Below are positions 5,237 through 54,459 of a stretch of DNA of 64,000 nt, piece after piece (the stretch's first letter is position 1; each line of letters opens with the position of its first letter). The stretch is from Bacilli bacterium (GTDB lineage Bacteria > Bacillota_I > Bacilli_A > RF39 > UBA660). The notes beneath the pieces were generated by a model. It was not told the origin of the DNA. It saw only the letters and a list, made by a program, of their open reading frames with translations, and did no database searches. The stretch is taken from NCBI GenBank assembly GCA_017478105.1, contig JAFVEF010000047.1, forward strand, positions 27,204 through 91,203, written 5' to 3'. The translations under genes and the position numbers were made by a program.

Positions 5237-6784
5237 CTAACTTCCCTTAACAACAAATACTAATCCAGCTGGCTTATCACTACTAGCATTTAATCTATCA
5301 CAATCAGCTTGAGTTTTTCCATAACCAGTCGTAGCAGCCGCTCCTGAAAACATCCATTTAGTATCAGTTACATTACTAGTATCAAAGCTAGAAAGATCTA
5401 ATGTAGGAATTTTAGTACTATAAAACATTGAATTCATTCTAGTCACATTTCTTGTATCAAAACTACTAACATCTAATGATGAAGCATTACAAAAAGCAAA
5501 CATAAAACTCATATCAGTTACATTACTAGTATCAAAACCAGTTAAATTAATTGTTGTAGCCATACTCCAATAAAACATATCACTCATATTAGTAACCTTA
5601 TTTGTATTAAAACCACTTAAATCTAATGATTGCATCATACTTTCAGCAAACATAGCATCCATATTAGTTACATTGCTCGTGTCAAAACTACTCAAATCCA
5701 AAGAAGTTAATAAACTGCCCTCAAACATATATGACATATCTTCAACATTACTTGTATCAAAATTATCCAAATTTAAACTTGTTAATTTATTATAGTAAAA
5801 CATACCAGACATATTAGTAACATTAGATGTTTCAAAATTACTTAAATCTAAAGTTGTTATTTCAGCTTCATCAAACATCCAACTCATATTGATTACATTG
5901 CTTGTATCAAAACTACTTAAATCAATTGATGTAGCTTTACTTTCATAAAAAGTTCCACTCATAGATACAATTGGTTTATTATTAATTGATGAACATAGAA
6001 CACTATTTACAGAATCAGTTGCATCTTTATCAGTTAATATAACTCCCCAACCCAAATCACTTATATCAACAGTAACTCCACGATTACTCCATTCTTTCAT
6101 ATATACATAAGTATACTGTCCATTTACATACTCTGCACCAGGTACTAGTTCACCATTGAAGGTACATGGATTATCTCCTACATAATCATACATTATTGGT
6201 ACATTATCCCATACTTCTTTATACTTATTAGCTTGTACTGATTCTATTGTAATATCTAATTCATAGGTTGCTCCATCATAACCATCTCCAGTAGATTCAC
6301 ATGAATAAACATTATTATTAGTTGTACATGTAATATCTCCTTCAACATTTGAATTATAAGTGACACTTTTAATTAAAGAAGAAGTCTCATCTCCTGGAGC
6401 TAATTCCTCCAAATAGTAATAATAATCATCTTTTTTTAACCAATCACTTTCATTATCAAAATTAATAATTGCCACTTTCTCATTATTATATTCCAAAGCA
6501 AGTGGATTATTATTTTTACTAGTCCAAGACTCATCAAGTTTTACTCTAACCCTAACAGGAATAGTTCCCTCATTCTTAGTAACAATTCTTTTCTCTGTTT
6601 CTTCTCCTGGAAGCCAATTAGTTGGTGAAGTAAAAGTCTCCCTAGTAACAGTTTTATAAGTACCACTTAAAAATAAGTTTTCAAATACTTCATTATTAGA
6701 AAAATAAGCAAATACTCCAGATATTATAAATACAAGAGCTAAACAAAATAAAAATAAAATACTTTTCTTATTTTTAATTTTCAT
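5237..6784 (-). CDS. secreted surface protein: SipW-cognate-type signal peptide + camelysin/TasA-like N-domain fused to DUF285 (BspA-like 26-residue) repeats
   Basis: N-terminal KKS-hydrophobic-FAYFSNNEVFENLF...GTY matches the camelysin/TasA leader (GTFAFFSDKEVS.N.F..GTLDL). Mid region has NW.PGE and NEGTIPVRVRV beta-sandwich motifs. C-terminal half has about 9 repeats of DLSxFDTSNVTNMSxMF. Start at ATG preceded by TAGGTGAGTAGG. Confidence 0.7.
   Translation of the reverse strand: MKIKNKKSILFLFCLALVFIISGVFAYFSNNEVFENLFLSGTYKTVTRETFTSPTNWLPGEETEKRIVTKNEGTIPVRVRVKLDESWTSKNNNPLALEYNNEKVAIINFDNESDWLKKDDYYYYLEELAPGDETSSLIKSVTYNSNVEGDITCTTNNNVYSCESTGDGYDGATYELDITIESVQANKYKEVWDNVPIMYDYVGDNPCTFNGELVPGAEYVNGQYTYVYMKEWSNRGVTVDISDLGWGVILTDKDATDSVNSVLCSSINNKPIVSMSGTFYESKATSIDLSSFDTSNVINMSWMFDEAEITTLDLSNFETSNVTNMSGMFYYNKLTSLNLDNFDTSNVEDMSYMFEGSLLTSLDLSSFDTSNVTNMDAMFAESMMQSLDLSGFNTNKVTNMSDMFYWSMATTINLTGFDTSNVTDMSFMFAFCNASSLDVSSFDTRNVTRMNSMFYSTKIPTLDLSSFDTSNVTDTKWMFSGAAATTGYGKTQADCDRLNASSDKPAGLVFVVKGS
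5281..5935 (-). repeat. tandem ~78-bp (26-codon) DUF285 repeat array inside CDS
   Basis: Reiterated DLSSFDTSNVTNM...MF units are visible in the translation, with matching reiterated ttgtatcaaaa(ct)ta... DNA motifs. Confidence 0.7.
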
Positions 6785-6813
6785 CCTACTCACCTACTAT
6801 AAAAAATATACCA

Positions 6814-6848
6814 CAAAAAATAAAAAAAACAAAGAATAATCTTTGTTT
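6814..6848 (-). terminator. intrinsic terminator after small ORF/recD2 transcription unit
   Basis: aaacaaag-aataat-ctttgttt hairpin overlapping the stop, followed by a long T-run on minus strand. Confidence 0.55.
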
Positions 6849-7011
6849 AAAAATCAGTATTATCTAATTTATTATACATTGACTTATTAGCTTCCATAGC
6901 CATATCCTTCATCATACACATAACATTAGGATGCTTCTTTAAATACATAAAACCAAATACACCCATTCCACCTAACATAGAAGCTAATAATAAACTATTC
7001 ATTTTTTTCAA
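6847..7011 (-). CDS. small hydrophobic Met-rich peptide (~54 aa), hypothetical
   Basis: Hand-translated: (M)KKMNSLLLASMLGGMGVFGFMYLKKHPNVMCMMKDMAMEANKSMYNKLDNTDF. TTG start lies 5 nt after GGTGA and the terminator follows immediately. Below the length cutoff of the supplied track. Confidence 0.3.
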   Translation of the reverse strand: MKKMNSLLLASMLGGMGVFGFMYLKKHPNVMCMMKDMAMEANKSMYNKLDNTDF

Positions 7012-7047
7012 ATAATTCACCTCTAAAAGTAGTATGAACTAATAATC

Positions 7048-9228: not shown

Positions 9229-9254
9229 TTAATCACCACCTAACTTTTATTATA

Positions 9255-9287
9255 ACAAAAAAATTAGAATTAATTTTCTAATTTTTT
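9255..9287 (-). terminator. intrinsic terminator after 9270..11054 gene
   Basis: aaattagaa/ttctaattt stem spanning the stop codon, then T-run on minus strand. Confidence 0.45.
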
Positions 9288-11054
9288 TCTAACACTCTTA
9301 ATCATAAAATAAACAAGTAATAATAAACCACATATTATATTTCTATTAAAATCATTATCATAAATAGTAAATGTTTCAGGATTAATATATGCTTTATCAA
9401 TATAAGTTACTTTAATAAAAACATCTTTATCAATCATTTTAAATGAATAATAATCTCCATCTTTAGTATATTCAATATCTAATTTATTATCATCTTCATC
9501 AAAGAATTCAATTTTTAATACATCTTTACCATCTACTTGTTTTACTTTAAACTTAACATCTTCAGAAGTAAAGTAATAATCTAAAAGATCTAAACATTCA
9601 TCTCCACTAACAATATATTTAGGAAGTTCTAAAAATTCTACTTCAACTAAAACATTCTCTCCAGGCATAGTAAATGTATATAAATCATTTTCTAATGTAG
9701 GAGTAATTGCTAACTCATCACCATTATTATTTAAAAGTTTAATAGATTTAACACTAAATCCTCTATCCGGTTTTACTCTAAAACTAGCTATTTGATCTTC
9801 TTCAATAGAATTAACATCTATCTCTACATGAGAATCATTAGATGTTACGTCATAGAAATCTTTAATAACTCTATAATTAGTTTCAACGTAAACATCATAT
9901 AAAGGCATACTAAATTGATATTTTGTATCACTAATTTTAGTTAAAGGAATATCAACCTCTTCATGATTTGAATTATATAACTTAAATTCAGTAAACATAT
10001 AACCATCACGATCTTTAGCACTTATTTCAACAGTATCCCCTACTTCACTTTCTAAAACATTACTAGAAGAATAAGAATCATTATTAATCATATATTGTTT
10101 TTCAACTTCAATTATATAAGGATTGTTTCTACTTCCATCACCAAAATAATAATTAGCTGTATTTCTTAATGCAACCATTGGTCTAATACCAGCATTATAA
10201 GTAAATGTATACATATTTAACATACCCTTAGAATTAGGATACATATTTTTAGTAAGGGTATAAGGTGTCATAGACCAATAAGAATAAGAAATATTAACAA
10301 AAACACTAGTTTGTGTCTTTTTCAAAACTTCTCCAGCATATGTAACTTCATCAGCATTAATAATTCCAGTTGGATAAGTTAATTTACCATTTCCAAATGC
10401 CTTATTAACAGTATAACTATCACTATCTTCACAACTTAAATCAGGATGTCCTTCTTCAAGTCTAGTTCTAGCAATAAAATTATTTTCAGCATCCATCCTT
10501 CTATCATTACACCATACCGTATCTTCTAATTCACGAGTATAATCAGTCATATTATCTTTGTACCAATTATCTAGATATGTCTTCGCAACACTATCTTTTT
10601 CAACATCATCTTCTAAATAAGTCCATCCATACTTAGGACTAGAATTAGTATCATTATATTGACTCTTACCGATTGCTAGAGCCTCTTTTTCATTACTACA
10701 AGAATTATTATCCCATACACCAGCGTATAATAATTTAATACCACCAGTTTTAGTTGTACGAATAATTCTCCAACAAAATCCTGCATAAACGACATGATTA
10801 TTATCAATATCTCCTCTAAAATAAAGAATAGGGAACTTATCACTAGCACTACTACCAATCTTATATAAACCCTTACCATTAGTATCACTAGATGTTTCTA
10901 AAAAATCAATTCCCGTATCAGACGCTACAAACTCACTAGCTTTATTATCTAAAACGGAATTAGAGTTCAAAGTATCATATAAATTCTTAGCATAAACATT
11001 ATTAATCCAAAAAAAAGAAAATACTCCAAATAATAATAAATAAATCTTCTTCAT
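9270..11054 (-). CDS. exported Cys/Tyr-rich surface protein, short paralog of the large family (shared CW.IIRTT.TGG core and G.RP...L module), C-terminal TM anchor
   Basis: Signal peptide MKKIYLLLFGVFSFFWINNVYA. Core FCWRIIRTTKTGGIKLLYAG, VWCNDRR, YWSMTPY, GIRPMVALRN. Then Ig-like repeats and a C-terminal hydrophobic helix plus KSVRKKLEN. Confidence 0.6.
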   Translation of the reverse strand: MKKIYLLLFGVFSFFWINNVYAKNLYDTLNSNSVLDNKASEFVASDTGIDFLETSSDTNGKGLYKIGSSASDKFPILYFRGDIDNNHVVYAGFCWRIIRTTKTGGIKLLYAGVWDNNSCSNEKEALAIGKSQYNDTNSSPKYGWTYLEDDVEKDSVAKTYLDNWYKDNMTDYTRELEDTVWCNDRRMDAENNFIARTRLEEGHPDLSCEDSDSYTVNKAFGNGKLTYPTGIINADEVTYAGEVLKKTQTSVFVNISYSYWSMTPYTLTKNMYPNSKGMLNMYTFTYNAGIRPMVALRNTANYYFGDGSRNNPYIIEVEKQYMINNDSYSSSNVLESEVGDTVEISAKDRDGYMFTEFKLYNSNHEEVDIPLTKISDTKYQFSMPLYDVYVETNYRVIKDFYDVTSNDSHVEIDVNSIEEDQIASFRVKPDRGFSVKSIKLLNNNGDELAITPTLENDLYTFTMPGENVLVEVEFLELPKYIVSGDECLDLLDYYFTSEDVKFKVKQVDGKDVLKIEFFDEDDNKLDIEYTKDGDYYSFKMIDKDVFIKVTYIDKAYINPETFTIYDNDFNRNIICGLLLLVYFMIKSVRKKLEN

Positions 11055-11149
11055 AAAACACCCTCCAGTAATATTATTACCCTATTATTATGTTTTATCC
11101 AATATTATTTACCCTATATAAATATATACCAAATATAAAAATAAGTCAA

Positions 11150-13152: not shown

Positions 13153-13185
13153 ATAAAAAGAAAAAGAAGTAAATTATTTACTTCT
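13153..13185 (-). terminator. intrinsic terminator after 1122-aa surface protein gene
   Basis: agaagtaaa-tta-tttacttct hairpin at the stop, then T-run. Nearly the same hairpin terminates the paralog at 57350. Confidence 0.6.
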
Positions 13186-16100
13186 AATCTCCACTAGTAT
13201 CAACTACATATGGATCTGCCATAGACCCTGTTCCAGATAAATATTTAATACCCGGTTTTAGAGAGATTGCTGGACGGACGCCCATCGAACTGAAAACGTA
13301 GCTATTGCCACCTATGCTACCAGTGGTGTTAACCTTCCATACGTCAGCGTCGCCGTAGTCAAAATAGTAAGGTGAAACAAACCAGTAACTTTGTCCCGTT
13401 TTTCGAGCATTACTATTATTTAAAAGGTTCATATCGCGATAAGACATTAAACCAACTTTATATGTTAATTTTGCTTTATTATTACTTACACTAAATTTGT
13501 CTGTATCATTTGTGCAACTTAAACCACTTGCCCCATAAAAATACATATATGTCGTAGTATTTCCTCCGTTTGGATTCCATCCATTTACATCAGCACTACT
13601 TTGACTTCTATCATTACAATATATTGTATCTTCTATATAGTCATCATAATTTTTTAATAAATATTGCTTATACCATGCATCTATTCCACTTTTTATCGTT
13701 GAATTGGTTGTGTTTACGTTATCACCATATAACATTTCATGTTTGGCATCTTCTATACTTTTACCATTACTAATATTTATATAGTATGGCGTTGTTTCAC
13801 TTATGTAATAAATATAAGATATGGTTGTACATTCACCCGTTTCATTCCAACATGTATAATGTGCATTGTTTATACTTGTTTTATTAGTACTATCATTGAT
13901 ATTCCAGAAACTTATAGATGTATCGTTATCTAACACATACTTACTTCCATCCCAAGTAAATCCTTTTGCATATTTATAATTATTTGCTACCTCAATATAA
14001 TTTACTGCCGAATTTGAAGTTTCAGTTATATACCATAAATCACTACATGTATCATTTACAGCATTCTTACATACATATTTATTTTTTACATTACTATAAC
14101 TTGTATACCAATCTTTTCTTTCTATTGTTGTTGGGTTATTTATTGTATAAGTACCATCTCCATTATCAATATAACTATCTCCGTATATATAAGTATAATT
14201 GAAGTCAGATAAAGTATGGTTTCCACTATTAGTTAATTGAATATAGTAATAAGTACTATTATTTACTGCTGCAATGTATTGAACAGAACTATTAGTATTA
14301 GTTTGATCAGTATTTCTAAATGTATATTTTCCAACTAAGTTAGGATAATCTGTTGTCGCAGATACTTGATATGGATTATCTAAGTTATATCTATTTGCTA
14401 CTGGGTTTCCCCAAGTTACAGAATCGCCATACCAGTAAGTTGTTCGAAGCGACGAACGTGATAACATAGTTTCACCTGAAATCATTGTTTTAGTATAATG
14501 TGGATAAACTGTATTATACATATATCCTACATAAGCTGGTGAATTAGACTTTGGATTAAATTGTAGTGTTCCAAATTGTGAATAATTTGAACTAGAATTC
14601 AATGGTATTACATAAGCATTTGATGTATTATAATATGATTCTACTAAATATAGAGTTGTACAGGTTCCATCAACACTTGTATTTTTACAAGTATATTTTC
14701 CAATTAATGTTGGACCTGTTGTATCATTCCATGTAGTTTGTTCTGTTGTACCACTAACTTTAAATGTTTTATTAGTACTATCATAAGTATAATCTGTTCC
14801 ATACCAATAATTAGATGCAAGATTCTGAATTGTACTTGATGCATATCCTACATGTGTTTCTCTGGTGTTAAGACACTGATTGTTTTCTACTTCTCCATTA
14901 TAAATCATCTTCACTCCGCCGGTATCTGTTGTTCTAATCATTTGCCAACATTGCCCCGCAAATATAACATTATTCTTATCAAGTACTTGATTTCCTTCTG
15001 AATCATTTTTTGCATACCAATGATATATATCTTTAGATGGTTCCTCTGTAAATGAATCATGGTGGTTTTCTGTATACTTACGAGCTAATCCACCATTTTC
15101 AGTTTCTTCTTTTAAAACGTTATATAGCTTAGGAACTTCATAAATTGTTCCATCCATAGTTTTAGTAATACCTTGTTTGGTCCAAGTACCTCTAATATTT
15201 ATATCATAATTAGGCATTACGAATACTTGATCATTTATATAATTAACATCCTCATCTACTTCATATCCTTTAAATAAATAACCATTACAAGATAATTCAT
15301 CACTTTTTTTAGTGACATTACTATATGCCTTATAATTCTCACTTGTAAAATTTGTAATAGAACAACCACTTGGAGCATTAGCAAAATAATTAACTGTATA
15401 ACTATCTTTCAATACTGGAGTATCTGTTGTAGAAGAAGTAGCTTCAGTTTCATCTTCTATTTTAGAAGTACTTGTTAGTGATGAATTTAGTGGATAATAA
15501 TCACTAGAAACACCATTCTTTAATGAAACAACAATATTCAAAGTTTCACTACTTCCTGTTACAAGTCCTGATAAATTCCAACTAACTTTATTACTTTCTA
15601 AATTAACTTCACCGTTAGATGTACTAATATCATTTATAGTATCAACTTGAAAATAAGAATTGTTTATAAAATCATTAATAATAAGATTTTCATATGTTTT
15701 TGGATTTAAAGCTGCATTAAACAAAACATTATCTAAAGAATCCATAGTACTAATTAATTGTCTATCACTAACTCTAACAATTTCATCTTTTAAAGTACTA
15801 CCCATCTCATATTGAATACCAACAATTTCTAAATAAGAATACTTGTCTTTTAAAATAGCATAAGTTCCAACTTCCGCCGGAGTATCTTCTCCAGGACAAC
15901 CATCAGTTAAAAATAAAGCCACTAAATCAGTATTTTCCCTCTCACCGTAAGAAGAAAGTAATGAATCTAATTGTAGTAAACCAGAATTATAATTAGTACC
16001 ACCTGTCGTAGTAATACCATCAATTATATTTATAATATCAGTAGAATTATTACTAAACTCAGATAATAAAGTTGCCATACTATTAAAACTAATAATACTA

Positions 16101-16552
16101 ACTCTATTATTAGAATCAGATAATAATGAAGATACTAGTTCCCTTGAATCATTTTTTACTTGATCTAATTTTTCTCCATTCATAGATCCAGAATTATCAA
16201 TAATTAAAATTATATCTTTTTTATGATTACTAGAACTCTTAACTTTAGTTTTTAAATCTAAAGTTATTTCAGCCTTATTAGCACCTATCCATTTAGCAGA
16301 CTTATCTATTTTAAATCCACCTGGAGTAGAATAATTACCATTTAAAGTAACACTTTTAACTTCTTCAGTATAAACACCTGCGAAAGCAAGTATTTTCTTA
16401 TATGATTTTTTTAATATACCTTTAGGCATAAAAATAGATATACTAATTAATAATATAATTAAAGAAGTAATAAATAATCTCTTTTTAGATGAACTAATAA
16501 TATTAACTAATTTGCCTCTTTTAAAGAATGTTTTAATTCTATGTTTTAACAC
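13184..16552 (-). CDS. large exported surface protein: N-terminal von Willebrand factor A domain + conserved paralog-family core and C-terminal YW.SP...GVRPAISL module
   Basis: VWA MIDAS context DNSGSM...T(G)GTNY...TDG. Core LYNVLKEETENGGLARKYT...CWQMIRTTDTGGVKMIYNGE shared with the 711- and 762-aa paralogs. GTG start 7 nt after TAGGTGA. Confidence 0.75.
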   Translation of the reverse strand: MLKHRIKTFFKRGKLVNIISSSKKRLFITSLIILLISISIFMPKGILKKSYKKILAFAGVYTEEVKSVTLNGNYSTPGGFKIDKSAKWIGANKAEITLDLKTKVKSSSNHKKDIILIIDNSGSMNGEKLDQVKNDSRELVSSLLSDSNNRVSIISFNSMATLLSEFSNNSTDIINIIDGITTTGGTNYNSGLLQLDSLLSSYGERENTDLVALFLTDGCPGEDTPAEVGTYAILKDKYSYLEIVGIQYEMGSTLKDEIVRVSDRQLISTMDSLDNVLFNAALNPKTYENLIINDFINNSYFQVDTINDISTSNGEVNLESNKVSWNLSGLVTGSSETLNIVVSLKNGVSSDYYPLNSSLTSTSKIEDETEATSSTTDTPVLKDSYTVNYFANAPSGCSITNFTSENYKAYSNVTKKSDELSCNGYLFKGYEVDEDVNYINDQVFVMPNYDINIRGTWTKQGITKTMDGTIYEVPKLYNVLKEETENGGLARKYTENHHDSFTEEPSKDIYHWYAKNDSEGNQVLDKNNVIFAGQCWQMIRTTDTGGVKMIYNGEVENNQCLNTRETHVGYASSTIQNLASNYWYGTDYTYDSTNKTFKVSGTTEQTTWNDTTGPTLIGKYTCKNTSVDGTCTTLYLVESYYNTSNAYVIPLNSSSNYSQFGTLQFNPKSNSPAYVGYMYNTVYPHYTKTMISGETMLSRSSLRTTYWYGDSVTWGNPVANRYNLDNPYQVSATTDYPNLVGKYTFRNTDQTNTNSSVQYIAAVNNSTYYYIQLTNSGNHTLSDFNYTYIYGDSYIDNGDGTYTINNPTTIERKDWYTSYSNVKNKYVCKNAVNDTCSDLWYITETSNSAVNYIEVANNYKYAKGFTWDGSKYVLDNDTSISFWNINDSTNKTSINNAHYTCWNETGECTTISYIYYISETTPYYINISNGKSIEDAKHEMLYGDNVNTTNSTIKSGIDAWYKQYLLKNYDDYIEDTIYCNDRSQSSADVNGWNPNGGNTTTYMYFYGASGLSCTNDTDKFSVSNNKAKLTYKVGLMSYRDMNLLNNSNARKTGQSYWFVSPYYFDYGDADVWKVNTTGSIGGNSYVFSSMGVRPAISLKPGIKYLSGTGSMADPYVVDTSGD

Positions 16553-21169: not shown

Positions 21170-23275
21170 TTAATTAGTATCAACCACATAAGGATGTTCC
21201 ATAAAACCATCACCAGATAAATACACAGTTCCAGGTTTTAGTGAAACTGCCGGACGAAGACCCTGTGAAAAATAAATGCCATCGTTACTCAAGTGCCCAC
21301 TTGAAGTCACAACACAACTGTAAGCGTAGTATATGATGTTGAAAAAGTAAGGTGAAGCAAGCCAATAATATCGTCCCGCTTTTCGAACATTATCATTATT
21401 TAAAATATTAATTTCAGAACTTGACATCAATCCAACTTTATAAGTTAATTTTGCTTTATTATTGGATACACTAAATTTATCTGTTGTATTTGTACAACTT
21501 AAATCACTTGAAACATTATAATTTTTAAATTGAAGATATGTATTTGTCATACCGCCATCAGGATTCCATCCTCCAAGAGAACTGATTGATCTATCGTTGC
21601 AGAATATAGTATCTTCTAAGTAATCACTATAATCTTCTAATAAATAATGCTTATACCAGGCATCTACTCCACTTTTCATCGTTGAATTTACCTGATTAAC
21701 GCCATCATCGTACAGCATCTCATTAACTGCATCTTCAACACTTTTACCATTAGTAATGTTTATATAGTATGGCTTAGTTCCACTCATGTAATAAATATAA
21801 GATATGGTTGTACATTCACCTGTATCATTCCAACATGTATAATGCGCATTGTTTATACTTGTTTTATTAGTTTCATTCCAATCAAAGAAAGTTGTAGAAG
21901 TATCATTATTTAATACATATTTACTTCCATCCCAAGTGAATCCTTTTGCATATTTATAATTCTTTGAACTACTTATATATGTCATCGACGTATTTGATGT
22001 TGCAGTAGTATACCATAAGTAACTACATGTATCATTCACTGCATTCTTACATACATATTTATTTGCTCCCACACTACTATAGCTTGTATACCAGTCTTTT
22101 CTTTCTATTGTTGTTGGATTATTAATCGTATATGTACCGTCTCCATTATCGGTGAAACTATCTCCATAAGTATAAGTGTAGTTAAAATCAGACAATGTAT
22201 GATTTCCAGAATTAGATAGTGTAATATAATACATGGTCGAATTGTTTACTGCCACTATATAATACACATTACTATTAGTATAAGTTTGTGTTGCATTTCT
22301 AAAAGTATATTTACCTACTAAACTTGGATAATTTGCTGTGGAAGTAACCTGGTCTGGATTATCTAAGTTATATCTATTGGCAGTTGGACTTCCCCAAGTT
22401 ACAGAATCTGCATACCAGTATGATGTTGATAGTGAATTACTTGAAAACATCACTTCAGTTGAAGTCATTGATTTTGAATTGCTTGTATAAACAGTATTAT
22501 ACATATATCCTACATGTGCGGGTGAAGGAGCACTGGCATTAAATTCTAAAGTTCCAAATTGAGAATAATGTGAATTAGAGTTTATTGCTATTACATTAGT
22601 GTTTGGAGCATTATAAGAATCTATTAAAACTATTGCCGCACAAGAATCATCAATATTTTCACTTTTACATGTATATTTTCCAACTAATCCTGACGCAGTT
22701 GAATCACTCATTGTCGCCTTTTCAGTAGTTCCACTAACTTTAAATGTTTGAGTTGAACTATCATAAGTATAATCTGTTCCATACCAATAAGGGCCAACAA
22801 TATATTCAGAGTTTAATCCAGAATATCCTGGATGAGTACCTCTTGTATTAAGACACTGATTGTTTTCAGCTTCCCCATTGTAGATCATTTTTACTCCACC
22901 AGTATCGGTTGTTCTAATCATTTGCCAACAATGATCTGCAAATATAACATTATTCTTATCTAGTATTTGTGTACCTTGTGTATCGTTAGTTGCATACCAA
23001 TGATATATATCTTTAGAAGGAGCATCTGTAAATGAATCATGATGTGCACCTGTATACTTCGTAGCTAATCCTCCTGTTTCTGCTTCTTTTGCTAAAACAT
23101 TATATAAAGTCTTTTCATAATACTTTTTAACATTTAAATTACCATTTATATTTAAATTAGTAGAAAGTGTAGAATATCCAATAGATAGAAACATAAAAAG
23201 TACTAAAATTATATTTAGTACCAATCTCTTATTAAGTAGTTGTCTTTTCTTAACAATTCTTCTCATCTTTTTCAT
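21170..23275 (-). CDS. large exported Cys/Tyr/Asn/Thr-rich surface protein (paralog family member)
   Basis: N-terminal ~150 aa are about 90% identical to the 57350..59638 product, including the signal/anchor KKRQL..LVLFMFLSIGYSTLSTNLNING. C-terminal YYWLASP...GLRPAVSLKPG. Start at MKKMRR, 5 nt after GGTAGGT. Confidence 0.75.
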   Translation of the reverse strand: MKKMRRIVKKRQLLNKRLVLNIILVLFMFLSIGYSTLSTNLNINGNLNVKKYYEKTLYNVLAKEAETGGLATKYTGAHHDSFTDAPSKDIYHWYATNDTQGTQILDKNNVIFADHCWQMIRTTDTGGVKMIYNGEAENNQCLNTRGTHPGYSGLNSEYIVGPYWYGTDYTYDSSTQTFKVSGTTEKATMSDSTASGLVGKYTCKSENIDDSCAAIVLIDSYNAPNTNVIAINSNSHYSQFGTLEFNASAPSPAHVGYMYNTVYTSNSKSMTSTEVMFSSNSLSTSYWYADSVTWGSPTANRYNLDNPDQVTSTANYPSLVGKYTFRNATQTYTNSNVYYIVAVNNSTMYYITLSNSGNHTLSDFNYTYTYGDSFTDNGDGTYTINNPTTIERKDWYTSYSSVGANKYVCKNAVNDTCSYLWYTTATSNTSMTYISSSKNYKYAKGFTWDGSKYVLNNDTSTTFFDWNETNKTSINNAHYTCWNDTGECTTISYIYYMSGTKPYYINITNGKSVEDAVNEMLYDDGVNQVNSTMKSGVDAWYKHYLLEDYSDYLEDTIFCNDRSISSLGGWNPDGGMTNTYLQFKNYNVSSDLSCTNTTDKFSVSNNKAKLTYKVGLMSSSEINILNNDNVRKAGRYYWLASPYFFNIIYYAYSCVVTSSGHLSNDGIYFSQGLRPAVSLKPGTVYLSGDGFMEHPYVVDTN

Positions 23276-23328
23276 ACTATACCTACCATATGAATTATAT
23301 ATCAAAATTAAAAGAAATGCAAATAAAC

Positions 23329-26004: not shown

Positions 26005-26043
26005 TTAGTTTAAAATAAAAAATCATAACAATTAGTTATGATT
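26005..26043 (-). terminator. intrinsic terminator after 26032..26589 gene
   Basis: aatcataac-aatta-gttatgatt hairpin spanning the stop, then T-run on minus strand. Confidence 0.55.
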
Positions 26044-26589
26044 TATATATAAACTACTAAATATATATTTTTCAAATTGAATATATTTCATCGAATAAGA
26101 AAATCTAAACTTTTCTATAGAATCAGGTATATCATCAACAGTAATATCCCTCTTATATGAAACTCTAACTCTAATAGTTTTAGATTCATTCGCAAATAAT
26201 ACTTGATTAGGAAGTATCTCTTCTCCATCACTATAAGTAACACTATAATCTAAATAACTAGGTAAATTAGTAATTAATTCTCCGTTTAACTTACTAATAG
26301 TTGAATCAATCATTCCATCTATTGTCCCAGAATTTACTACATCAACTAAAAATTCATATGTATCTCCAGGTATAGTAAAATAAAGATCATAATTAACTAC
26401 ATTATTATCATTACTAATAGAAGAAGAACCATTATTACTACCATCTATTACTCTTAAATTATCAAAGTGAATATCCCATTTAGGATTATTAATAACAGAT
26501 GAACCAACTACATTTATAGAAGTACTCATATTAGCATATCCAACCGTTATAAAACTAAGTATTAAAACAATTACAAACAAATATTTTTT
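26032..26589 (-). CDS. small secreted protein (~185 aa), possibly a TasA/camelysin-fold minor component
   Basis: Signal peptide MKKYLFVIVLILSFITVGYA, 6 nt after AGGGGAG RBS. Weak ...PGDTYEF..N.GTIDG similarity to the TasA beta-sandwich. Immediately downstream of the DUF285 gene. Confidence 0.4.
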   Translation of the reverse strand, partial: KKYLFVIVLILSFITVGYANMSTSINVVGSSVINNPKWDIHFDNLRVIDGSNNGSSSISNDNNVVNYDLYFTIPGDTYEFLVDVVNSGTIDGMIDSTISKLNGELITNLPSYLDYSVTYSDGEEILPNQVLFANESKTIRVRVSYKRDITVDDIPDSIEKFRFSYSMKYIQFEKYIFSSLYINHN

Positions 26590-26672
26590 CATAATAATCT
26601 CCCCTGGTACGATATACAATAACATATAAATAAAAAATATACAATAAAAAAGGATGACTAATGTCATCCAAA

Positions 26673-34280: not shown

Positions 34281-35048
34281 TTACAACAGTTTTATAAAAT
34301 CTAAAACTTGATTAAAACTAATTCCCATAAAAAATACTAACGTAAGTCCCAGAAGAAGAAAAGGTCCAAAAGGAATAATTCTTTTCCCTCTACTATATAG
34401 TAAAAATAATGATATAGGTAACGCTAAAACAGAAGAAATAAATATAACTAATAATCCTACTACAGGATGAAGAAGTATTCCAAAAACAAACATCATTTTA
34501 ATATCTCCTCCACCTAATGATTCTTTCTTAAATAAATAATTACCCATAAGCATAATTAAATACATAATTCCAAATAAACATAAACCACTAAATATTTTTA
34601 AAAGACAAGTACTAACTCCATACTGTAATGCCGCTATAACTAAGAAATATCCTGAAAAAAATATAAGTACTTCATCAGGTATAATTAAATAAGTTATATC
34701 AGAAACAGATATTATAGATAACATTGATACAATACCAATAGCTATAAATAAATCATAACTAAAGCCAAAAACAAAATAAGAAAGAGCAAATAAAACCCCA
34801 GTAAAAAACTCCATTGAAGTAGATAAACTATCAATAGATGCTCCACAATATCGGCACTTCTTACCAAGTAAATAATAAGAAACGATTGGAATCATATCAA
34901 ACAAAGATAAAGTATGATGACAATGATCACAATAACTTCTACTCTTTATACAATCTTCTCCTTTAGGAAGTCTAAGACCAACTACTGTATAAAAAGAACC
35001 CATTAAAGTACCTAAAATAAAAAAGATAATTATATATAATATTTCCAT
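34281..35048 (-). CDS. prepilin peptidase (A24 family; PilD/ComC-like)
   Basis: Zn-ribbon CDHCHHTL...CRYCG, IPDEV and GGGDIKMM catalytic aspartate motifs, multiple TM helices. Confidence 0.85.
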   Translation of the reverse strand: MEILYIIIFFILGTLMGSFYTVVGLRLPKGEDCIKSRSYCDHCHHTLSLFDMIPIVSYYLLGKKCRYCGASIDSLSTSMEFFTGVLFALSYFVFGFSYDLFIAIGIVSMLSIISVSDITYLIIPDEVLIFFSGYFLVIAALQYGVSTCLLKIFSGLCLFGIMYLIMLMGNYLFKKESLGGGDIKMMFVFGILLHPVVGLLVIFISSVLALPISLFLLYSRGKRIIPFGPFLLLGLTLVFFMGISFNQVLDFIKLL

Positions 35049-35070: not shown

Positions 35071-36522
35071 TTATTTAATTTGACTATAAATAGAAAACAT
35101 TGGTTGAATAATAGAAACTAATATAATACCAACAACTACTGCTAAGAAACAAATCAAAATTGGTTCAACTAAACTCTTCATTTGATCAATAACATTTTTA
35201 TGTAACATTTGAAAGTGATCAGCAACTTTTTCCATCATTTGACCAAGTTGTCCAGTAGTTTCACCAGTAACAATCATTTCATAAGCAACAACAGGAATAG
35301 CCCATTGTCCTTTAAAAGCAGATGATATAGAATCTCCCTTACCAAGATTTTCTAATGTCTGATTAATTATTTTTTTATAAACTTCATTATTAGTTATTTT
35401 AGATAATATTTCCATACTATCAGTAATAAAAACACCATGATTTAATAATGAAGCAAATGTTTTTGTAAAATTAGCAATTTCATTATATATTATTATATCT
35501 TTAGCAACAGGTATATGCATAAGAATTATTTGAACAGTTTCTCTAAATTTTTGAACTTTTTTATATAACTGCATAAAGATAAATACAACAACAAAAATAA
35601 CAAGTAATACATAATACCAATAATTAGTTAAAAAACCACTTACATTTAATATTGCCATAGTAAGAGCAGGCATTTCAGCTCCGTTTTCTTTAAACATTGA
35701 AGAAAACTGAGGAACTAAATAAGTAAGCATAAATACTAATACTCCTATCGCGATAGTTAATACAACAACTGGATATGTCATAGCAGATTTCATTTGTTTT
35801 CTAGTTTGATCCATTGAAGTATAATACTCACTCATATCATCCAATATTGATGGTAAATCACCAGTCATTTCAGCTGTCTTTACCATGTTTATTAAAAGCT
35901 TAGGATATACTTTATCCTGCATTAACATCGCATCAGATAAACTTTCTCCTTTTAGTAATTGATAAACTAATTGATTAAAACTTTTCTTCAAATTAGGCTT
36001 CTTAGTTTGTTTCGCAAGTATTTTAACTGAATCAGCTAAAGGAATACCTGATTTTATATATGTAGACAATTGTGTAAGAGAAAAAGATAAATCTCCTGCA
36101 CCAATATTATGATTAGCCCCAATGTCTATATCAAATTTATCACGTTGTTTAATACTTAATACTTGATAATTTAAACTTAATAAGAAATTTCTAACATCAT
36201 TTTCACTTTCTGCTTCAAAAGTACCTTGTTCTTTTTTACCATTATCATTAATAACAGTATAGCGAAAATCAATTAATGGTCTTTTGATTTTCTCACGATG
36301 TTCAGTTGCTAAAGATTTATCAGAAACTTCATTAGGGATAGTAGTAGCATTCAAAGAAGTATTAGGTTGACTAGATCCAACTGCTCCAGGCATTATATTA
36401 TTATAATTAACAGGATCTTTTGGTAATGCATCACTAGCACTAACAACACTATTCTGAGGATTTTGAACATTATTATCAACTATATTTTGTTTATTATCAT
36501 CTTTTTTCTTTTTAAATAACAT
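35071..36522 (-). CDS. type II secretion / type IV pilus / competence platform protein (GspF/PilC/ComGB family) with low-complexity N-terminal extension
   Basis: Two T2SSF domains, 3 TM segments, and a Gln/Asn/Ser-rich N-terminal ~120 aa. Confidence 0.8.
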   Translation of the reverse strand: MLFKKKKDDNKQNIVDNNVQNPQNSVVSASDALPKDPVNYNNIMPGAVGSSQPNTSLNATTIPNEVSDKSLATEHREKIKRPLIDFRYTVINDNGKKEQGTFEAESENDVRNFLLSLNYQVLSIKQRDKFDIDIGANHNIGAGDLSFSLTQLSTYIKSGIPLADSVKILAKQTKKPNLKKSFNQLVYQLLKGESLSDAMLMQDKVYPKLLINMVKTAEMTGDLPSILDDMSEYYTSMDQTRKQMKSAMTYPVVVLTIAIGVLVFMLTYLVPQFSSMFKENGAEMPALTMAILNVSGFLTNYWYYVLLVIFVVVFIFMQLYKKVQKFRETVQIILMHIPVAKDIIIYNEIANFTKTFASLLNHGVFITDSMEILSKITNNEVYKKIINQTLENLGKGDSISSAFKGQWAIPVVAYEMIVTGETTGQLGQMMEKVADHFQMLHKNVIDQMKSLVEPILICFLAVVVGIILVSIIQPMFSIYSQIK

Positions 36523-42647: not shown

Positions 42648-42674
42648 AAACAAAAAAAGAAGCAAAACTTCTTT
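42648..42674 (-). terminator. intrinsic terminator after Rpn-like gene
   Basis: aaagaag-caaaa-cttcttt hairpin at the stop with T-run on minus strand. Confidence 0.5.
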
Positions 42675-43659
42675 ATAGATTATTAGACAGAATATTTTCA
42701 ATTTCAGAAACATCCAAAGAAACAACTTTAGATATTAAATCAAGACTAATCTTTTCAGCATTCATTCGTTTTATAATATCTAGTTTAGTATCATTCTCTC
42801 CCTTGAAATAGCCTTCTTTCTCTCCTTTAGAATATCCTTCTTTCTCTCCTTTAGAATATCCCTCTTTCTCTCCTTTAGAATATCCCTCTTTCTCTCCTTT
42901 AGAATATCCCTCTTTCTCTCCTTTAGAAAATCCTTCCTTCTCTCCTAGAACATATCCCTCTTTTTCACCTCGATGTTTGCCCGCCAGAAATCCCTTGTGA
43001 TTTCCTAAATCATATAAAGCTAATTCTTTATCATAAGACTCTAATAAATCATCTTCCTCACTCACTTCTATTGCTTCTTCAACATATTCTTTCATCATAT
43101 CCAATCCCTCTCCTATTTTTAAGGAATCCTCAACACTAGGCAACACTAATCCCAGTAAATATTTTTCTGATTCCTCTAAGTTATGTATACCGTTAGTATA
43201 CCATTTTTTTAGAAGATTAGGAATATATATTTGTACAAATATTAATTTATTTGTTAGTTTTATATCTTCATCATTTTGAATATAATAAATATCAACTATT
43301 TTATCATTTCCTTTAAAATAAAAATTATTTATATTAAACTGAATTACCTGAACATACTCTAAATCCCTAGATCTCTTTCTTTTTCTTAAACTAGAATACA
43401 GTCTATGAGCATATTCCATATTTCTTTCTAAAATATCTATATCTCCATTATTATTAACCTCTATATTTATCTTACTACCATCTATATTCGCAATATAATC
43501 CCCTATTAAGTTTTTTTCAATATCCTTATTCTTATTAAATACATTTTTACTTAATGTTATATGTTTCAATAATTTTTCAAACGATATATCTAAATAATAA
43601 GAAATAAATAATGCTGAATACTTTAATCTATTTTCATTCAAAAACATAGTCTTCATCAT
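42673..43659 (-). CDS. Rpn/YhgA-like PD-(D/E)XK protein (recombination-promoting nuclease / putative transposase family) with C-terminal GEKEGYSK repeat tail; 5' end uncertain
   Basis: ...DGSKINIEVNNNGD...RNMEYAHRLYSSL aligns with the Rpn IEHQ...RMMRY core, with Q replaced by N. C-terminal KGEKEGYSKGEKEGYS repeats resemble the EKGIEKGIQQG tail of E. coli RpnA. The reading frame stays open upstream to 43824 past a GGAGG, but with no ATG/GTG/TTG. Confidence 0.5.
   Translation of the reverse strand: MMKTMFLNENRLKYSALFISYYLDISFEKLLKHITLSKNVFNKNKDIEKNLIGDYIANIDGSKINIEVNNNGDIDILERNMEYAHRLYSSLRKRKRSRDLEYVQVIQFNINNFYFKGNDKIVDIYYIQNDEDIKLTNKLIFVQIYIPNLLKKWYTNGIHNLEESEKYLLGLVLPSVEDSLKIGEGLDMMKEYVEEAIEVSEEDDLLESYDKELALYDLGNHKGFLAGKHRGEKEGYVLGEKEGFSKGEKEGYSKGEKEGYSKGEKEGYSKGEKEGYSKGEKEGYFKGENDTKLDIIKRMNAEKISLDLISKVVSLDVSEIENILSNNL
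42812..42960 (-). repeat. tandem array of about six 24-bp units (ccttctttctctcctttagaatat) encoding (K)GEKEGYS repeats
   Basis: Units 1-2 are identical, units 3-4 identical with 1 change, later units degenerate. In-frame 8-codon periodicity. Confidence 0.85.
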
Positions 43660-46151: not shown

Positions 46152-47594
46152 TTATGAATAATCATCATCATCAAAAGTAACTTCATCATTACTTTCATTA
46201 TTATTAAGAGGATTTAAATCACTATCAGGATTATCATTAATAATAACATCAGCATCTACTTCTTCAACCTTTTCAGGTGTCTCATCATAATCATCGTATT
46301 CGTCTGCTTCATCATACTCATCATTATCACTATTATTACGTTTATGATCTAAGTATGCTTTAGAACCTAGTCCAGCAGCTCCTACTGAAGTAAGACCAGC
46401 TACTATTGGAATAACATTACTTCCAGAAGCAGTTTTAGCTGTACCATGATTTTCAATTGGAATTTTTCTAGCTATTTCAGGATAAATTCCATTATCTTTA
46501 ATAACATCTTCTAAACTTACAGTACTGTCATCAATAATTTCTTCTACTGGTGAATCACTAGTAGTTGTAGAAACATATCCTTCACTACTATATCCTCCAC
46601 CTCCATGATAACTACTTTCATTTTGTGGAACAAATTTAGTAGGAGAAACTTCTTGATTAGTAGGTTCAGGTTGAGGATCAACATATACTTCATTGCCATG
46701 ATTTTCCTGTTTAGTCTCATTATGAGTCTCTTGTTTCTTTCCATTATCAGTAGGAGCAGAAGTATCCTCTTTAGCCTTCTTTGAAGTATCACTACTAGAA
46801 GAACTACTAGAATCAGATGAAGAATTACTAGAGCTAGATGAAGAACTAGAATTAGAACCAGAATCATAATTATAGTTATTTCCACCATTATTCCCATTAT
46901 CACCATTAGGATTACCACGTTGTGGCAATGTACCTTCTTCTCCTTCTTCATCACCAGGTTCCTCATTAGGATTAATTGGTTCTTCGTCTGCTTCTTCCTC
47001 TTCAGCCATTTCAGACAAAATGCCATCTTCGCTTACTGTCCCTCCAGCAAGACCAAGAAGTTTAACAAATTCATCCATATCTACAATATCAAAATTATAA
47101 TAATATTGACTATCAGTACTTTTATTATGGCTATATAAAAAATCATAGAAATCATCAATATCTTTACCTTTATCCTTACAATTTAGAAAATATGGAATTA
47201 ATCTCTGTGTTTCAAAATTATCTCTTTCTCTAAAAGACTTTTCATCGTTAAAAGATACTCCTCTAATTTGAGATAAAATTGCACTAATATCATAATGGCT
47301 TCTCTCATCATCATTAAGACTATTATATTTTTCAACTATCACCTTAACATTTTTTGCAGAAACATCAATGTAATACAATAAATCTTTAATTTTTTTTAGT
47401 TTATTTAAAAAATCAGAAGATAATTTATTACGATCTATTATTGAGGAAAAAAAGACATCACTAGAGTTATTAGATAAATTATTTATTTTTTTTTGAAAAT
47501 TAGTAATTACAATACTAATATCTTCTCTAATTTTTTTATTTGATTTTGAAGTCTCATCAAATTTTTTTGAATTAAATTCTAATTTTTCATTCAT
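46152..47594 (-). CDS. hypothetical protein: helical N-domain, Ser/Asn/Gly-rich and acidic low-complexity linker, C-terminal hydrophobic segment and poly-acidic tail
   Basis: Start set at MNEKLEF (AGGGGAG RBS). Contains ...GNNGGNNYNYDSGSNSSSSSSSS... and IPIVAGLTSVGAAGLG before DEYDEADEYDDYDE. Confidence 0.45.
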   Translation of the reverse strand: MNEKLEFNSKKFDETSKSNKKIREDISIVITNFQKKINNLSNNSSDVFFSSIIDRNKLSSDFLNKLKKIKDLLYYIDVSAKNVKVIVEKYNSLNDDERSHYDISAILSQIRGVSFNDEKSFRERDNFETQRLIPYFLNCKDKGKDIDDFYDFLYSHNKSTDSQYYYNFDIVDMDEFVKLLGLAGGTVSEDGILSEMAEEEEADEEPINPNEEPGDEEGEEGTLPQRGNPNGDNGNNGGNNYNYDSGSNSSSSSSSSNSSSDSSSSSSSDTSKKAKEDTSAPTDNGKKQETHNETKQENHGNEVYVDPQPEPTNQEVSPTKFVPQNESSYHGGGGYSSEGYVSTTTSDSPVEEIIDDSTVSLEDVIKDNGIYPEIARKIPIENHGTAKTASGSNVIPIVAGLTSVGAAGLGSKAYLDHKRNNSDNDEYDEADEYDDYDETPEKVEEVDADVIINDNPDSDLNPLNNNESNDEVTFDDDDYS

Positions 47595-47608
47595 ATATTT
47601 CCACTCCC

Positions 47609-48127
47609 CTAATACTTCCAAACACCATCAATAACTATGTATGAATAAGAATCCCTTAAACTTTCATACTGTCGTATTTTATCAATGGTGTCAGAATCAC
47701 TAATCAAATAACAATATCCATCATAAACTTTTTTATTATTTTCTAGAAGTTGTAATTTACTAACTACTTCATCATAACCAGCAGAATAATTACTATTAAA
47801 AGTGTCAATGTTATCTTTTATATCAGAAAGATTAGCAATTAAATTATCTCTTAATTTTATAGAATTGGACTCATCTATAGAAGAAAAATCCAAAACATTT
47901 GACGCATCCTTATAATCTTCACACAAAACGCAAATATTATTTCTAATATTATATATATCAGATCTAATATCAGAAAGAGAAGCCGAAAAATCTTCTAGCA
48001 TTTTTAAACTATCCGAAATATCTTTAGGAAAAATCTCATCAATATTTAAAGGTGTTATATCTTTATCAGAAACAGAATTATTAAAGCAAGGATAAACATC
48101 AAATGAATAATGATCAAGTTTTCTCAT
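47609..48127 (-). CDS. hypothetical acidic protein (172 aa), translationally coupled in the operon
   Basis: Stop/start spacing of 1-2 nt with neighbours. No recognisable motif. Confidence 0.4.
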   Translation of the reverse strand: MRKLDHYSFDVYPCFNNSVSDKDITPLNIDEIFPKDISDSLKMLEDFSASLSDIRSDIYNIRNNICVLCEDYKDASNVLDFSSIDESNSIKLRDNLIANLSDIKDNIDTFNSNYSAGYDEVVSKLQLLENNKKVYDGYCYLISDSDTIDKIRQYESLRDSYSYIVIDGVWKY

Positions 48128-49175: not shown

Positions 49176-49242
49176 AATCCCAACCCCAAACTAATGGCAC
49201 AATTATATCACATAATCATAATTTTTTCAAGTAAAACTAGCT

Positions 49243-51215: not shown

Positions 51216-51233
51216 AAATCCCCCTCCAGTCCA

Positions 51234-52284: not shown

Positions 52285-52358
52285 ATTAAATTCTCCTATT
52301 AAAAATATTTTATCACATGAATAATAATAAAAAAAGACCAATAATGGTCTCTTTACAT

Positions 52359-52649: not shown

Positions 52650-52660
52650 AATTCTCCTCC

Positions 52661-52963
52661 TTACTTAATACTTATATTATCTGGATAATTAACTTCCAGT
52701 TCTTTTAAAAGATTAATCATATTTTGAATTAGCTTTTGACAAACTAAATCATCACTTTTAACATCAATAGACATCCCTTTTTTACTAACAAGATAACTAA
52801 TATTATCTTTATTTATTAAAAGAATACCATTTACTGTAGTTGTAACTATACTACTACAAGCACTACATACAATATCTTTTCCATAATCATCATATAATGC
52901 ATGTCCAAGTATTGTTACTTTTCTATACTTATTATTCTCTTTTTTTACTTCTACTTTAATCAT
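52661..52963 (-). CDS. prp: ribosomal-processing cysteine protease Prp (YsxB/DUF464)
   Basis: [20 protein letters not shown] matches the Prp catalytic His/Cys dyad context. Sits between rplU and rpmA. Confidence 0.9.
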
Positions 52964-52965
52964 AA

Positions 52966-53268
52966 TTAACCATTAATTTTAGTAATTTTAATTTTAGTAT
53001 AAGGTTGTCTATGTCCTTGACTCAAGCGGTTAGATCTATCTTTACTCTTATATTTAAATACTTTAATCTTTTTATTCTTACCATTTTTAAGAACTTCTCC
53101 TAAAACAGTAGCATTACTAAGATAAGGATTTCCAACTTTTGAATCAATCATCAATACTTGATCAAAACTAACTACATCACCATCTTTACAATCTAGTTTT
53201 TCTACATAGATTTCAGATCCTTCAGTAACATAGTATTGTTTTCCACCGACTTTAATAACTGCGTTCAT
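52966..53268 (-). CDS. rplU: 50S ribosomal protein L21
   Basis: MNAVIKVGGKQYYV...KFKYKSKDRS..GHRQPYTKI is canonical L21. Confidence 0.95.
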   Translation of the reverse strand: MNAVIKVGGKQYYVTEGSEIYVEKLDCKDGDVVSFDQVLMIDSKVGNPYLSNATVLGEVLKNGKNKKIKVFKYKSKDRSNRLSQGHRQPYTKIKITKING

Positions 53269-53280
53269 ATATTTACCTCC

Positions 53281-53365
53281 TTTTATAAAACTTAAGACTC
53301 GCTCTTAAGGTACGTAAAGAACGTTTCTACCTTTTCAATGCGGTTTGAGCATGAGGCGTCAAACA
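53281..53365 (-). promoter_or_regulatory. structured, locally GC-rich 5' leader of the rplU-prp-rpmA operon (candidate L21-leader autoregulatory element)
   Basis: About 85 nt upstream of rplU with GC far above background (gacgcctcatgctcaaaccgcattg; cttaag-agcgagt-cttaag hairpin), ending in AAAGGAGG RBS. Confidence 0.4.
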
Positions 53366-53490
53366 AATAGATTTTATCATAATAAATAATAAAAGTCAAA
53401 CAAAACAACAAAAAAGGAATTTTAAGTAAATATTAAACATCTACCAACAACAATAATTAAAAACTCTTAGTCATAATAATACTATTTTTC

Positions 53491-53521
53491 CAAATAAAAA
53501 AGCACAATAAATATTGTGCTT
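53491..53521 (-). terminator. intrinsic terminator after 53528..54459 gene
   Basis: aagcacaata-aa-tattgtgctt 10-bp stem, then T-run on minus strand. Confidence 0.6.
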
Positions 53522-53527
53522 AAATAA

Positions 53528-54459
53528 CTAATAATTAATACAAGTGTTATTCATAGTATCAGCTGCATCTTCTACTAAGAAATCTCTTACATAGCTTTCA
53601 AAATTAGACTTAGCAACACTATCAGTAATAGGTTGTTCTCTAAATGCAATTTTTGATAAGTCACTAGAACCATAATCAAAATCATATGCACTTAAACTAG
53701 TTCCATTACTATCAATTGGAACAATAATTGTAACTGTCTCAGTACCTTTAGTATAATCTATTCTAGCATCTAAAGAATCATTTCCAGTACATGTATAAGT
53801 AATAGATAAATCACTTAACTCAACTTCATCACCAAACATAGTAATTGGAGCAGCAGCTGGATCATAATCTAATCCCCAAGCTTCTTTAAAATTATCAGCT
53901 TGAACTGTCTCTGTAGTAATAAATAATTTATAAGTACCACCTAAATATCCTGCATCACTAGAATCACAAGTATGAGTCATTCCATCTAAACTTTCATTAC
54001 AAGTAACTGTAGGTTGATATAAAGGATTAAATGTAACACTCTTTAATACTGAAGTAGTAGCTTGATTAGGAGCTAATGCATTTTTAAAATAATAATAACC
54101 ATCACTATAAACCCAATCATCTTGATTATCTAAATCAATTAAAGAAACTAAATTACCATTATAACTTAAATCTAATTGAGTACCACTTTCATTTTTCCAT
54201 TCTTCTCTAAATTTAACTCTAACTCTAACAGACATAGTTCCTTTATTAGTAGTAACTATAGTTTTAGGAGTTACATCTCCAGGAGCCCAATTAGTAGGAC
54301 TTTCAAATGCCTCAGTAGTTTGAGTTTTATATTTACCAGCATTAAATACGTTTTCAAAAGTATCAGTAGATTGTAAATAAGCAATTGTTACTCCAATAAG
54401 TACAACTACAAATACCGCAATTATCGCAACTAATGATTTTTTATTTTTTAATTTCACTA
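53528..54459 (-). CDS. secreted protein with SipW-cognate-type signal peptide and camelysin/TasA-like domain (no DUF285 repeats; distinct C-terminal domain)
   Basis: GTG start 7 nt after AGGAAG gives (M)KLKNKKSLVAIIAVFVVVLIGVTIAYLQSTDTFENVFNAGKYKT...NWAPGD...NKGTMSVRVRV, paralogous to the two DUF285 fusion proteins. Confidence 0.65.

Follow-up and report, generated by a model that had tools for sequence, protein, structure and literature searches.

Three related genes, here called A, B and C, occur on the minus strand of a 64-kb window, i.e. the whole stretch of 64,000 nucleotides that was analysed from contig JAFVEF010000047.1 of an uncultured rumen bacterium (Bacilli, RF39). Their products share a common leader, MK(I/L)KNKKS followed by a hydrophobic stretch and AY(F/L)xSxx(V/T)FENxFxxGxYKT, and their N-terminal ~200 residues displayed 46-69% identity. 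This leader was as quoted in the preliminary description of the window, and all three minus-strand open reading frames (ORFs) exist. The coordinates given there were correct for A and B, while the end proposed for C (54459) was 2 nt out of frame, the true one being 54457 (Table 1). Gene B starts 39 nt downstream of glmM. When the six-frame translation of the window was searched with a profile of the family to which these proteins were assigned (BsaA, see below), only A, B and C matched, with E-values from 1e-79 to 5e-83. Their resemblance is therefore far beyond chance, and the window holds no fourth copy of the BsaA-type domain detectable by this search.

Table 1. Features of genes A to D and of the sipW operon. 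Positions refer to the window unless another contig is named.
Feature	Position	Strand	Description
Gene A	5237..6784	minus	ATG start, AGGTGA ribosome-binding site 5' of it; 515 aa; MBR1937041.1
Gene A, signal peptide	6707..6784	minus	residues 1-26
Gene A, BsaA-type domain	6185..6706	minus	residues 27-~200
Gene A, 8 PARCEL/DUF285 repeats and C-terminal cap	5240..~5977	minus	separated by a linker from the BsaA-type domain
Gene D	26032..26592	minus	186 aa; second leader type VGYANMSTSINVVG; own GGGGAG ribosome-binding site
Terminator-like hairpin	26642..26669	minus	GGATGACATTAGTCATCC then T-run, 7 pairs; directly 3' of B stop, upstream of D ribosome-binding site
Gene B	26673..28286	minus	GTG start; 537 aa; MBR1937056.1
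Gene B, 9 PARCEL/DUF285 repeats and cap	26676..~27479	minus	
Gene B, BsaA-type domain	27687..28208	minus	
Gene B, signal peptide	28209..28286	minus	residues 1-26
Terminator-like hairpin	53490..53521	minus	directly 3' of gene C stop codon
Gene C	53528..54457	minus	GTG start, AGGAAG 5' of it; 309 aa
Gene C, C-terminal extension	53531..53857	minus	~110 residues, without family match
Gene C, leader and BsaA-type domain	53858..54457	minus	
sipW operon	L026 2556..7326		outside the window
sipW operon, peptidase gene	L026 6193..7326		MBR1936917.1

Downstream of the N-terminal domain, A and B carry eight and nine repeat units, respectively, with a period of exactly 25 residues and the signature FDTSNVTxMxxMF. 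Both were recognized by PF03382 (DUF285; 165.4 bits for A and 200.2 bits for B) and by TIGR02167 (PARCEL; 184.2 and 186.8 bits). No DUF285/PARCEL repeats were found in C with the Pfam and NCBIfam models, so that the fusion concerns two of the three proteins, as had been stated before. Repeats of the same length, with the same signature and the same C-terminal cap, characterize the DUF285/PARCEL surface proteins of mycoplasmas (where they are lipoproteins), Listeria and Lactococcus. Known DUF285 proteins are attached as lipoproteins or via cell-wall anchor domains. The lactococcal protein, for instance, bears a C-terminal anchor/MucBP domain (PMC5071367), whereas A and B display a BsaA-type attachment module instead and have neither a lipobox nor an LPxTG motif. 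More generally, a motif scan of A, B, C and D revealed no LPxT[GAS] motif, no C-terminal hydrophobic tail and no HExxH motif, and the possibility that these proteins are sortase substrates was rejected on the lack of LPxTG.

The three proteins passed the cut-off (60 bits) of TIGR04090, which describes BsaA family SipW-dependent biofilm matrix proteins, with 108.4 (A), 110.6 (B) and 102.3 bits (C). In the NCBI annotation, A and B already bear the BsaA family name. The model of SipW-type signal peptides, TIGR04088 (cut-off 19 bits), was likewise passed by A (21.2 bits) and C (26.6 bits). No separate entry appeared for B, whose leader nevertheless lines up with those of A and C at every column. 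PF12389 (Peptidase_M73, which includes TasA and camelysin; gathering cut-off 22.5 bits) matched A above the cut-off (28.0 bits), C below it (21.4 bits) and B not at all. These matches were confined to profile positions 2-91 of 196, i.e. to the leader and the first strands. The same model matched 64 of 97 long family representatives at E <=1e-3.

A more sensitive link with TasA came from hhalign, in which a profile of 48 family N-domains was compared with a TasA sequence identical to PDB 8AUR. The alignment (86% probability, E 5e-6) covered ~80 residues comprising the leader, the donor strand and the first strands; in it, A26|Y27 coincides with the site at which TasA is cleaved (A27|A28). The relationship with TasA is thus classed as remote homology, in keeping with the literature (PMC11580942), and is limited here to the N-terminal third. 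Taken as sequence relationships, these results solidly assign A, B and C to the BsaA family as paralogous members, within the TasA superfamily of biofilm-fibre subunits, and designate Clostridium perfringens BsaA as their closest characterised relative, rather than TasA or camelysin. The identity initially proposed, TasA/camelysin-type proteins, thus stands at the level of the SipW-dependent TasA superfamily; it has to be narrowed in that the closest relative is BsaA and that similarity to TasA extends over the first ~80-90 residues only.

An AlphaFold2 model of residues 1-215 of B (pLDDT 82.9) displayed a signal helix and an all-beta core. Together with the sequence conservation, it showed for each of the three proteins a predicted beta-sandwich domain of ~175 conserved residues behind a SipW-type leader. 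Residues 31-39, the putative donor strand, had pLDDT values below 50, and the same low-confidence behaviour was reported for residues 28-38 of BsaA (Kivimaki et al., PMC11580942).

In the BsaA-type family, few parts are as well conserved as F-E-N-x-F, the core of this disordered segment. Of 113 family sequences, 87 have N and 25 have D at position 36, while E49 and K65 were found in 107 and 110 of them, respectively. When 143 independent representatives and B were aligned, 134 of the 144 sequences showed the complete N-E-K combination, and all three that lack K65 have E49 replaced too. A, B and C all keep N36, E49 and K65. In the hhalign comparison, E49 and K65 corresponded to E50 and K68 of TasA, where the two residues are 18 positions apart, as are E56 and K74 of BsaA. 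The spacing of A, B and C (N +13 E +16 K) was found unchanged in an Enterococcus plasmid gene labelled BsaA family by NCBI, which shares its gene cluster with a signal peptidase I gene. Mapped in this way, via TasA and the Enterococcus homologue, N/D36-E49-K65 is probably equivalent to N35/E56/K74 of BsaA. In the latter, oligomers no longer form when N35, K74 or E56 is mutated, in support of a lock by an intermolecular isopeptide bond, and residues 28-38 were modelled as inserting into the next subunit (PMC11580942). Paralogues of BsaA that do not polymerise lack the N-E-K triad (Kivimaki et al., PMC11580942). Secretion of BsaA needs SipW, its polymers resist sodium dodecyl sulphate (SDS) and formic acid (PMC7395162), and its oligomers are membrane-anchored (PMC11580942).

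No SipW-type peptidase is encoded in the window, in agreement with the preliminary description: tblastn with the SipW-type peptidase of a related contig and a six-frame scan for the catalytic motif were both empty, and the adjoining 10 kb on the side of window position 1 likewise held no SipW-type gene. The peptidase of this related organism comprises 376 aa, scores 77.9 bits on TIGR02228 (cut-off 51.85 bits) and has more than 200 homologous proteins of 375-385 aa. A 377-aa protein of this type, MBR1936917.1 (P0113), scored 75.6 bits on TIGR02228 and 54.4 bits on NF046067, the Bacillus SipW equivalog, whose cut-off is 190 bits. It is accordingly classified as SipW-type by TIGR02228, yet not as an orthologue of Bacillus SipW.

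This protein is very probably encoded in the same assembled genome as the window, as judged from binning, accession order and sample co-occurrence. The window proteins are numbered MBR1937038 to MBR1937078 in NCBI and MBR1936917.1 lies ~120 accession numbers lower; contigs of a single study of ruminant-gut metagenomes (XIEF21-1) matched the window with 99.99% identity, and MBR1936917.1 was present in five samples that also hold these contigs. The G+C content of its locus is 26%, as in the window. The dedicated peptidase that had been predicted to lie elsewhere in the genome was thus very probably found. Two further candidates, P0146 and P0126, were rejected as the SipW of this genome, since both come from other samples and hence from other organisms. 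The operon of MBR1936917.1 consists, in this order, of three genes for ~195-aa secreted proteins, one for a DUF5305 membrane protein, a fourth ~195-aa gene, the peptidase gene and a GH25 lysozyme-like gene. SipW-type peptidases of this lineage display a conserved polytopic N-terminal domain of ~240 residues, belonging to no known family and fused to the catalytic domain. In other reference genomes, members of the BsaA-type family adjoin short peptidases of ~160-180 aa.

Gene D follows B on the minus strand. Its coordinate had first been set at 26589, 3 nt short of the ATG at 26592, from which a protein of 186 aa is read, as in the public gene call. D had also been described as co-transcribed behind B. 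This is doubtful: because of the terminator-like hairpin behind the B stop codon and of D's own ribosome-binding site, co-transcription can hardly be obligatory, and a B-D operon was rejected on account of the hairpin. No Pfam or NCBIfam family matched D. Its identity to the ~195-aa proteins of sipW operons was 19-27%, and phmmer linked it to the product of the gene that immediately precedes sipW in this genome (1e-10). D is thus classified as a divergent paralogue of the ~195-aa secreted family, encoded four times in the sipW operon, and not as a BsaA-type protein.

The leaders of this second family follow the pattern (I/V)(A/G)Y(A/S)xLSxxLx(I/V). When the two families were compared with hhalign, a match (78% probability, E 1.8e-5) was obtained in the leader region only, and the second family showed no significant match to TasA. 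The model of D (pLDDT 80.7) is a beta-sandwich for which the TasA fibre 8AUR gave the longest Foldseek alignment, at rank 5; with a TM-score of 0.37 and an E-value of 0.012, this match was too weak and assignment to the TasA fold was rejected. In some homologues of D from other genomes (P0496), the D-type module is fused to the junction that stands before DUF285 in A and B, which suggests that two distinct N-terminal modules are combined with the same passenger set.

Several sipW operons (on contigs L026, L012, L020 and L003) encode three to six ~195-aa proteins with conserved cysteines and the leader G(I/V)AYAALSxTLx(V/I)T, together with a DUF5305 membrane protein. The small proteins all stayed below every Pfam and NCBIfam cut-off. 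In the window, the second leader type, in which SIGYSTLSTNLNINGNLNV comes after a hydrophobic stretch, was observed in D and in the products of 21170..23275 and 57350..59638 (minus strand), and no family model covers it. The latter two are large paralogues of 701 and 762 aa that display the leader and the strand but no D-type acceptor domain, the 762-aa protein ending in DUF6273. Such strand-only proteins could be cap or tip subunits, similar to TapA.

The fusion observed in A and B is not confined to this genome. An exhaustive profile search returned 9391 cluster representatives at E <=1e-3, 3744 at E <=1e-10 and 555 at E <=1e-30. Among the top 150, the BsaA-type domain was always N-terminal, and 111 of the 143 representatives newly returned by this search were longer than 260 aa. 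A Pfam scan of 97 long representatives detected DUF285 in 17, DUF6273 in five, LRR_5 and Flg_new in two each, and cohesin and Flg_new_2 in one each. In 29 of 33 reference-genome loci, a stand-alone family gene of ~205 aa was directly beside a short SipW-type gene. Like the window, the assembled genome RGIG4816, the closest relative in that set, has its copies scattered, extended by long C-terminal regions and without a sipW next to them. The literature searched contained no mention of DUF285 together with TasA or SipW. The fusion, first presented as unusual, is thus so in the sense of being undescribed in that literature, but not in the sense of being rare. It is a recurrent architecture in metagenomes, already annotated automatically though apparently still undescribed and unstudied.

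These observations lead us to favour, if only by a little, a reading in which A, B and C are fibre subunits that are cleaved by SipW, polymerise through donor strands, become covalently locked and display an adhesin-like domain on each subunit. The pre-proteins would be exported by the Sec pathway, with the leader holding them in the membrane until the SipW-type peptidase cuts after Ala26, the position aligned with the TasA site. The freed strand, from Y27 to about G41 with F-E-N-x-F as its core, would then enter the beta-sheet of a neighbouring subunit by donor-strand exchange. An isopeptide bond, with Glu49 as catalyst, would subsequently join Asn36 of the donor to Lys65 of the acceptor, as mutagenesis indicated for N35, K74 and E56 of BsaA. 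This would yield a surface fibre with covalent links between its subunits, each of them displaying a repeat domain with adhesin function. Mixed fibres of A, B and C may also form since their three donor strands are nearly identical. A C-terminal fusion of BsaA with FAST was still secreted and surface-exposed (PMC11580942), indicating that C-terminal cargo can be tolerated. Proteins with DUF285 are secreted or located at the cell surface. Likewise, an adhesin role of the repeats is plausible since a lactococcal DUF285 surface protein contributes to adhesion to mucin and polystyrene (PMC5071367).

Several points weigh against such fibres. The TasA fold that had been anticipated was not recovered by structure comparison: TasA was not among the top 50 PDB matches of Foldseek to the N-domain model, and the similarity seen by profile comparison covered the ~80 residues mentioned above. 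The Foldseek matches obtained were weak and generic, to Ig-like proteins or to other fibre or pilin subunits (Ena2A, AfaE/DraE and EcpA, with TM-scores <=0.33), and a profile search of PDB sequences with the BsaA-type domain returned nothing significant. Asn and Glu of the triad are 13 residues apart in A, B and C versus 21 in BsaA, and the equivalence of the triad to that of BsaA was derived indirectly. Polymerisation, the cleavage site and the isopeptide bond of A, B and C are all inferred. A passenger of ~300 residues on each subunit, much larger than the FAST tag of about 14 kDa, might hinder assembly. As to the peptidase, it is not adjacent to A, B or C but belongs to a separate operon whose ~195-aa secreted proteins may be its main substrates, and its very probable placement in the same genome rests on a binned assembly and not on a closed genome.

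The alternative that survives best, although we regard it as unlikely, is that A, B and C do not polymerise but work as single adhesin molecules, secreted or on the surface. The BsaA-type domain would then serve only for secretion and as a stalk, and a leader cleaved late or not at all would keep it tethered. Their passenger domains are indeed large, no anchor or assembly gene adjoins any of the three genes, the oligomers of BsaA are themselves anchored in the membrane, and the BsaA paralogue BsaB was reported not to polymerise. Yet, the triad that is missing from non-polymerising paralogues is retained in full by A, B and C. The joint loss of E49 and K65 in the rare exceptions and the strong conservation of the F-E-N-x-F donor motif also argue against monomers. 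Should A, B and C be monomeric adhesins only, they would represent ordinary domain shuffling in surface proteins.

It is still less probable that the ~195-aa proteins with the second leader type (those of the sipW operon and D) make up the main fibre, which A, B and C would join or decorate as accessory subunits instead of forming their own. In its favour are the four ~195-aa proteins and the DUF5305 membrane protein encoded with the peptidase of the same genome, and the position of the divergent member D beside B. The 'AY' leader end shared by both families and the A/B-type junction that precedes DUF285 in P0496 point in the same direction. However, the donor strands of the two families differ (YxxSTDTFENxF versus YAALSxTLxVT), so that cross-complementation is not expected, and past the leader no significant similarity was observed. 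Besides, in most genomes a stand-alone BsaA-type gene and its own sipW form the entire locus, which is consistent with fibres made without the second family. Finally, that A, B and C are camelysin-type (Peptidase_M73) metalloproteases, as the PF12389 match of A might suggest, is hardly credible and was rejected, since this match covers the leader and first strands only, is below the cut-off in C and missing in B, and none of the proteins contains HExxH; the name Peptidase_M73 itself is regarded as probably due to CalY having been mistaken for a peptidase (PMC11580942).

Considered as fibre subunits, A, B and C can be compared with several known systems. They resemble BsaA, encoded in the sipW-bsaA-bsaB-bsaC operon of C. 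perfringens, by their match to TIGR04090, their SipW-type leader, the donor strand disordered in the monomer model, an N-E-K triad probably equivalent to that of BsaA, the lack of LPxTG and the very probable presence of a SipW-type peptidase in the genome. BsaA is, however, a single-domain protein of about 23 kDa encoded beside sipW, whereas A, B and C comprise 309-537 aa with PARCEL or unknown C-terminal domains. Their genes are dispersed among housekeeping genes, and the 377-aa peptidase, with its polytopic N-terminal domain, belongs to another operon. With TasA of B. subtilis and CalY of B. cereus (PF12389; 5OF1, 8AUR), they share the leader, the predicted cleavage position and a putative donor strand followed by a 'PGD...K...N.G' strand. 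Dependence on a SipW-type peptidase and assembly by donor-strand exchange make these proteins the model for the mechanism proposed here. TasA, however, lacks the triad Asn (A37 aligns with N36), does not form an isopeptide bond such as that proposed for A, B and C, and has no passenger domain. Sortase-assembled Gram-positive pili with tip adhesins are covalent fibres with adhesin domains and Lys-Asn isopeptide chemistry, as predicted for A, B and C. The latter have no sortase signal; in them, bond formation is predicted to be autocatalytic and to follow donor-strand exchange, and the adhesin would be carried by every subunit and not by the tip only.

What is new here is the occurrence of BsaA-type subunits with adhesin-like passengers; the BsaA/TasA fibre family was known, and the mechanism proposed is plausible. 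So far, TasA and BsaA fibres are known as matrix scaffolds made of single-domain subunits. If subunits with large passengers do polymerise and lock, they would constitute a third Gram-positive route to adhesive fibres, beside sortase pili and type IV pili, as well as a natural template for isopeptide-locking display scaffolds. The architecture appears common in never-cultured Bacilli of the ruminant and human gut. As a tentative generalization, which we consider possible rather than probable, the BsaA-type (and D-type) domain in a large group of uncultured gut Bacilli may be an interchangeable handle that polymerises and locks covalently by itself, so that any passenger (PARCEL, DUF6273, LRR_5, Flg_new or cohesin) could be made into an adhesin fibre without sortase. 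Proteins reduced to leader and strand would then be caps or tip adhesins, and the long polytopic SipW would act as an assembly platform.

The window is dense in other surface-protein genes. The gene at 13184..16552 (minus strand) codes for a 1122-aa protein with a von Willebrand A (VWA) domain near its N-terminus (VWA_2, 53.5 bits), recalling BsaC, the VWA protein of the C. perfringens bsa operon. Part of it (13361..15126) displayed 77-79% DNA identity to the paralogue at 21170..23305. A prepilin peptidase (Peptidase_A24) and a PilC/GspF-type platform protein are encoded at 34281..35048 and 35071..36522 (minus strand), with no adjacent ATPase or pilin gene. In C. perfringens, type IV pilus genes reportedly help to export BsaC and BsaA oligomers. 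A 594-aa secreted protein (9270..11054, minus strand) combines a divergent InlB B-repeat (Flg_new_2), a region similar to the DUF6273 paralogues and a C-terminal hydrophobic tail. Of the products of 42673..43659 and 46152..47621 (minus strand), one displays six tandem KGEKEGYS repeats, and the other comprises 489 aa with low-complexity Ser/Asn/Asp stretches. In one of the metagenomic assemblies from this population (L004 8468..9913), the 481-aa gene at 2897..4342 is broken into two ORFs, of 194 and 268 aa, which represents either a frameshift variant or an assembly error. The same contig carries a gene for spore coat protein F (Coat_F; L004 17866..18114) about 6.7 kb outside the window, on the side of position 1, which hints that the source organism may form spores.

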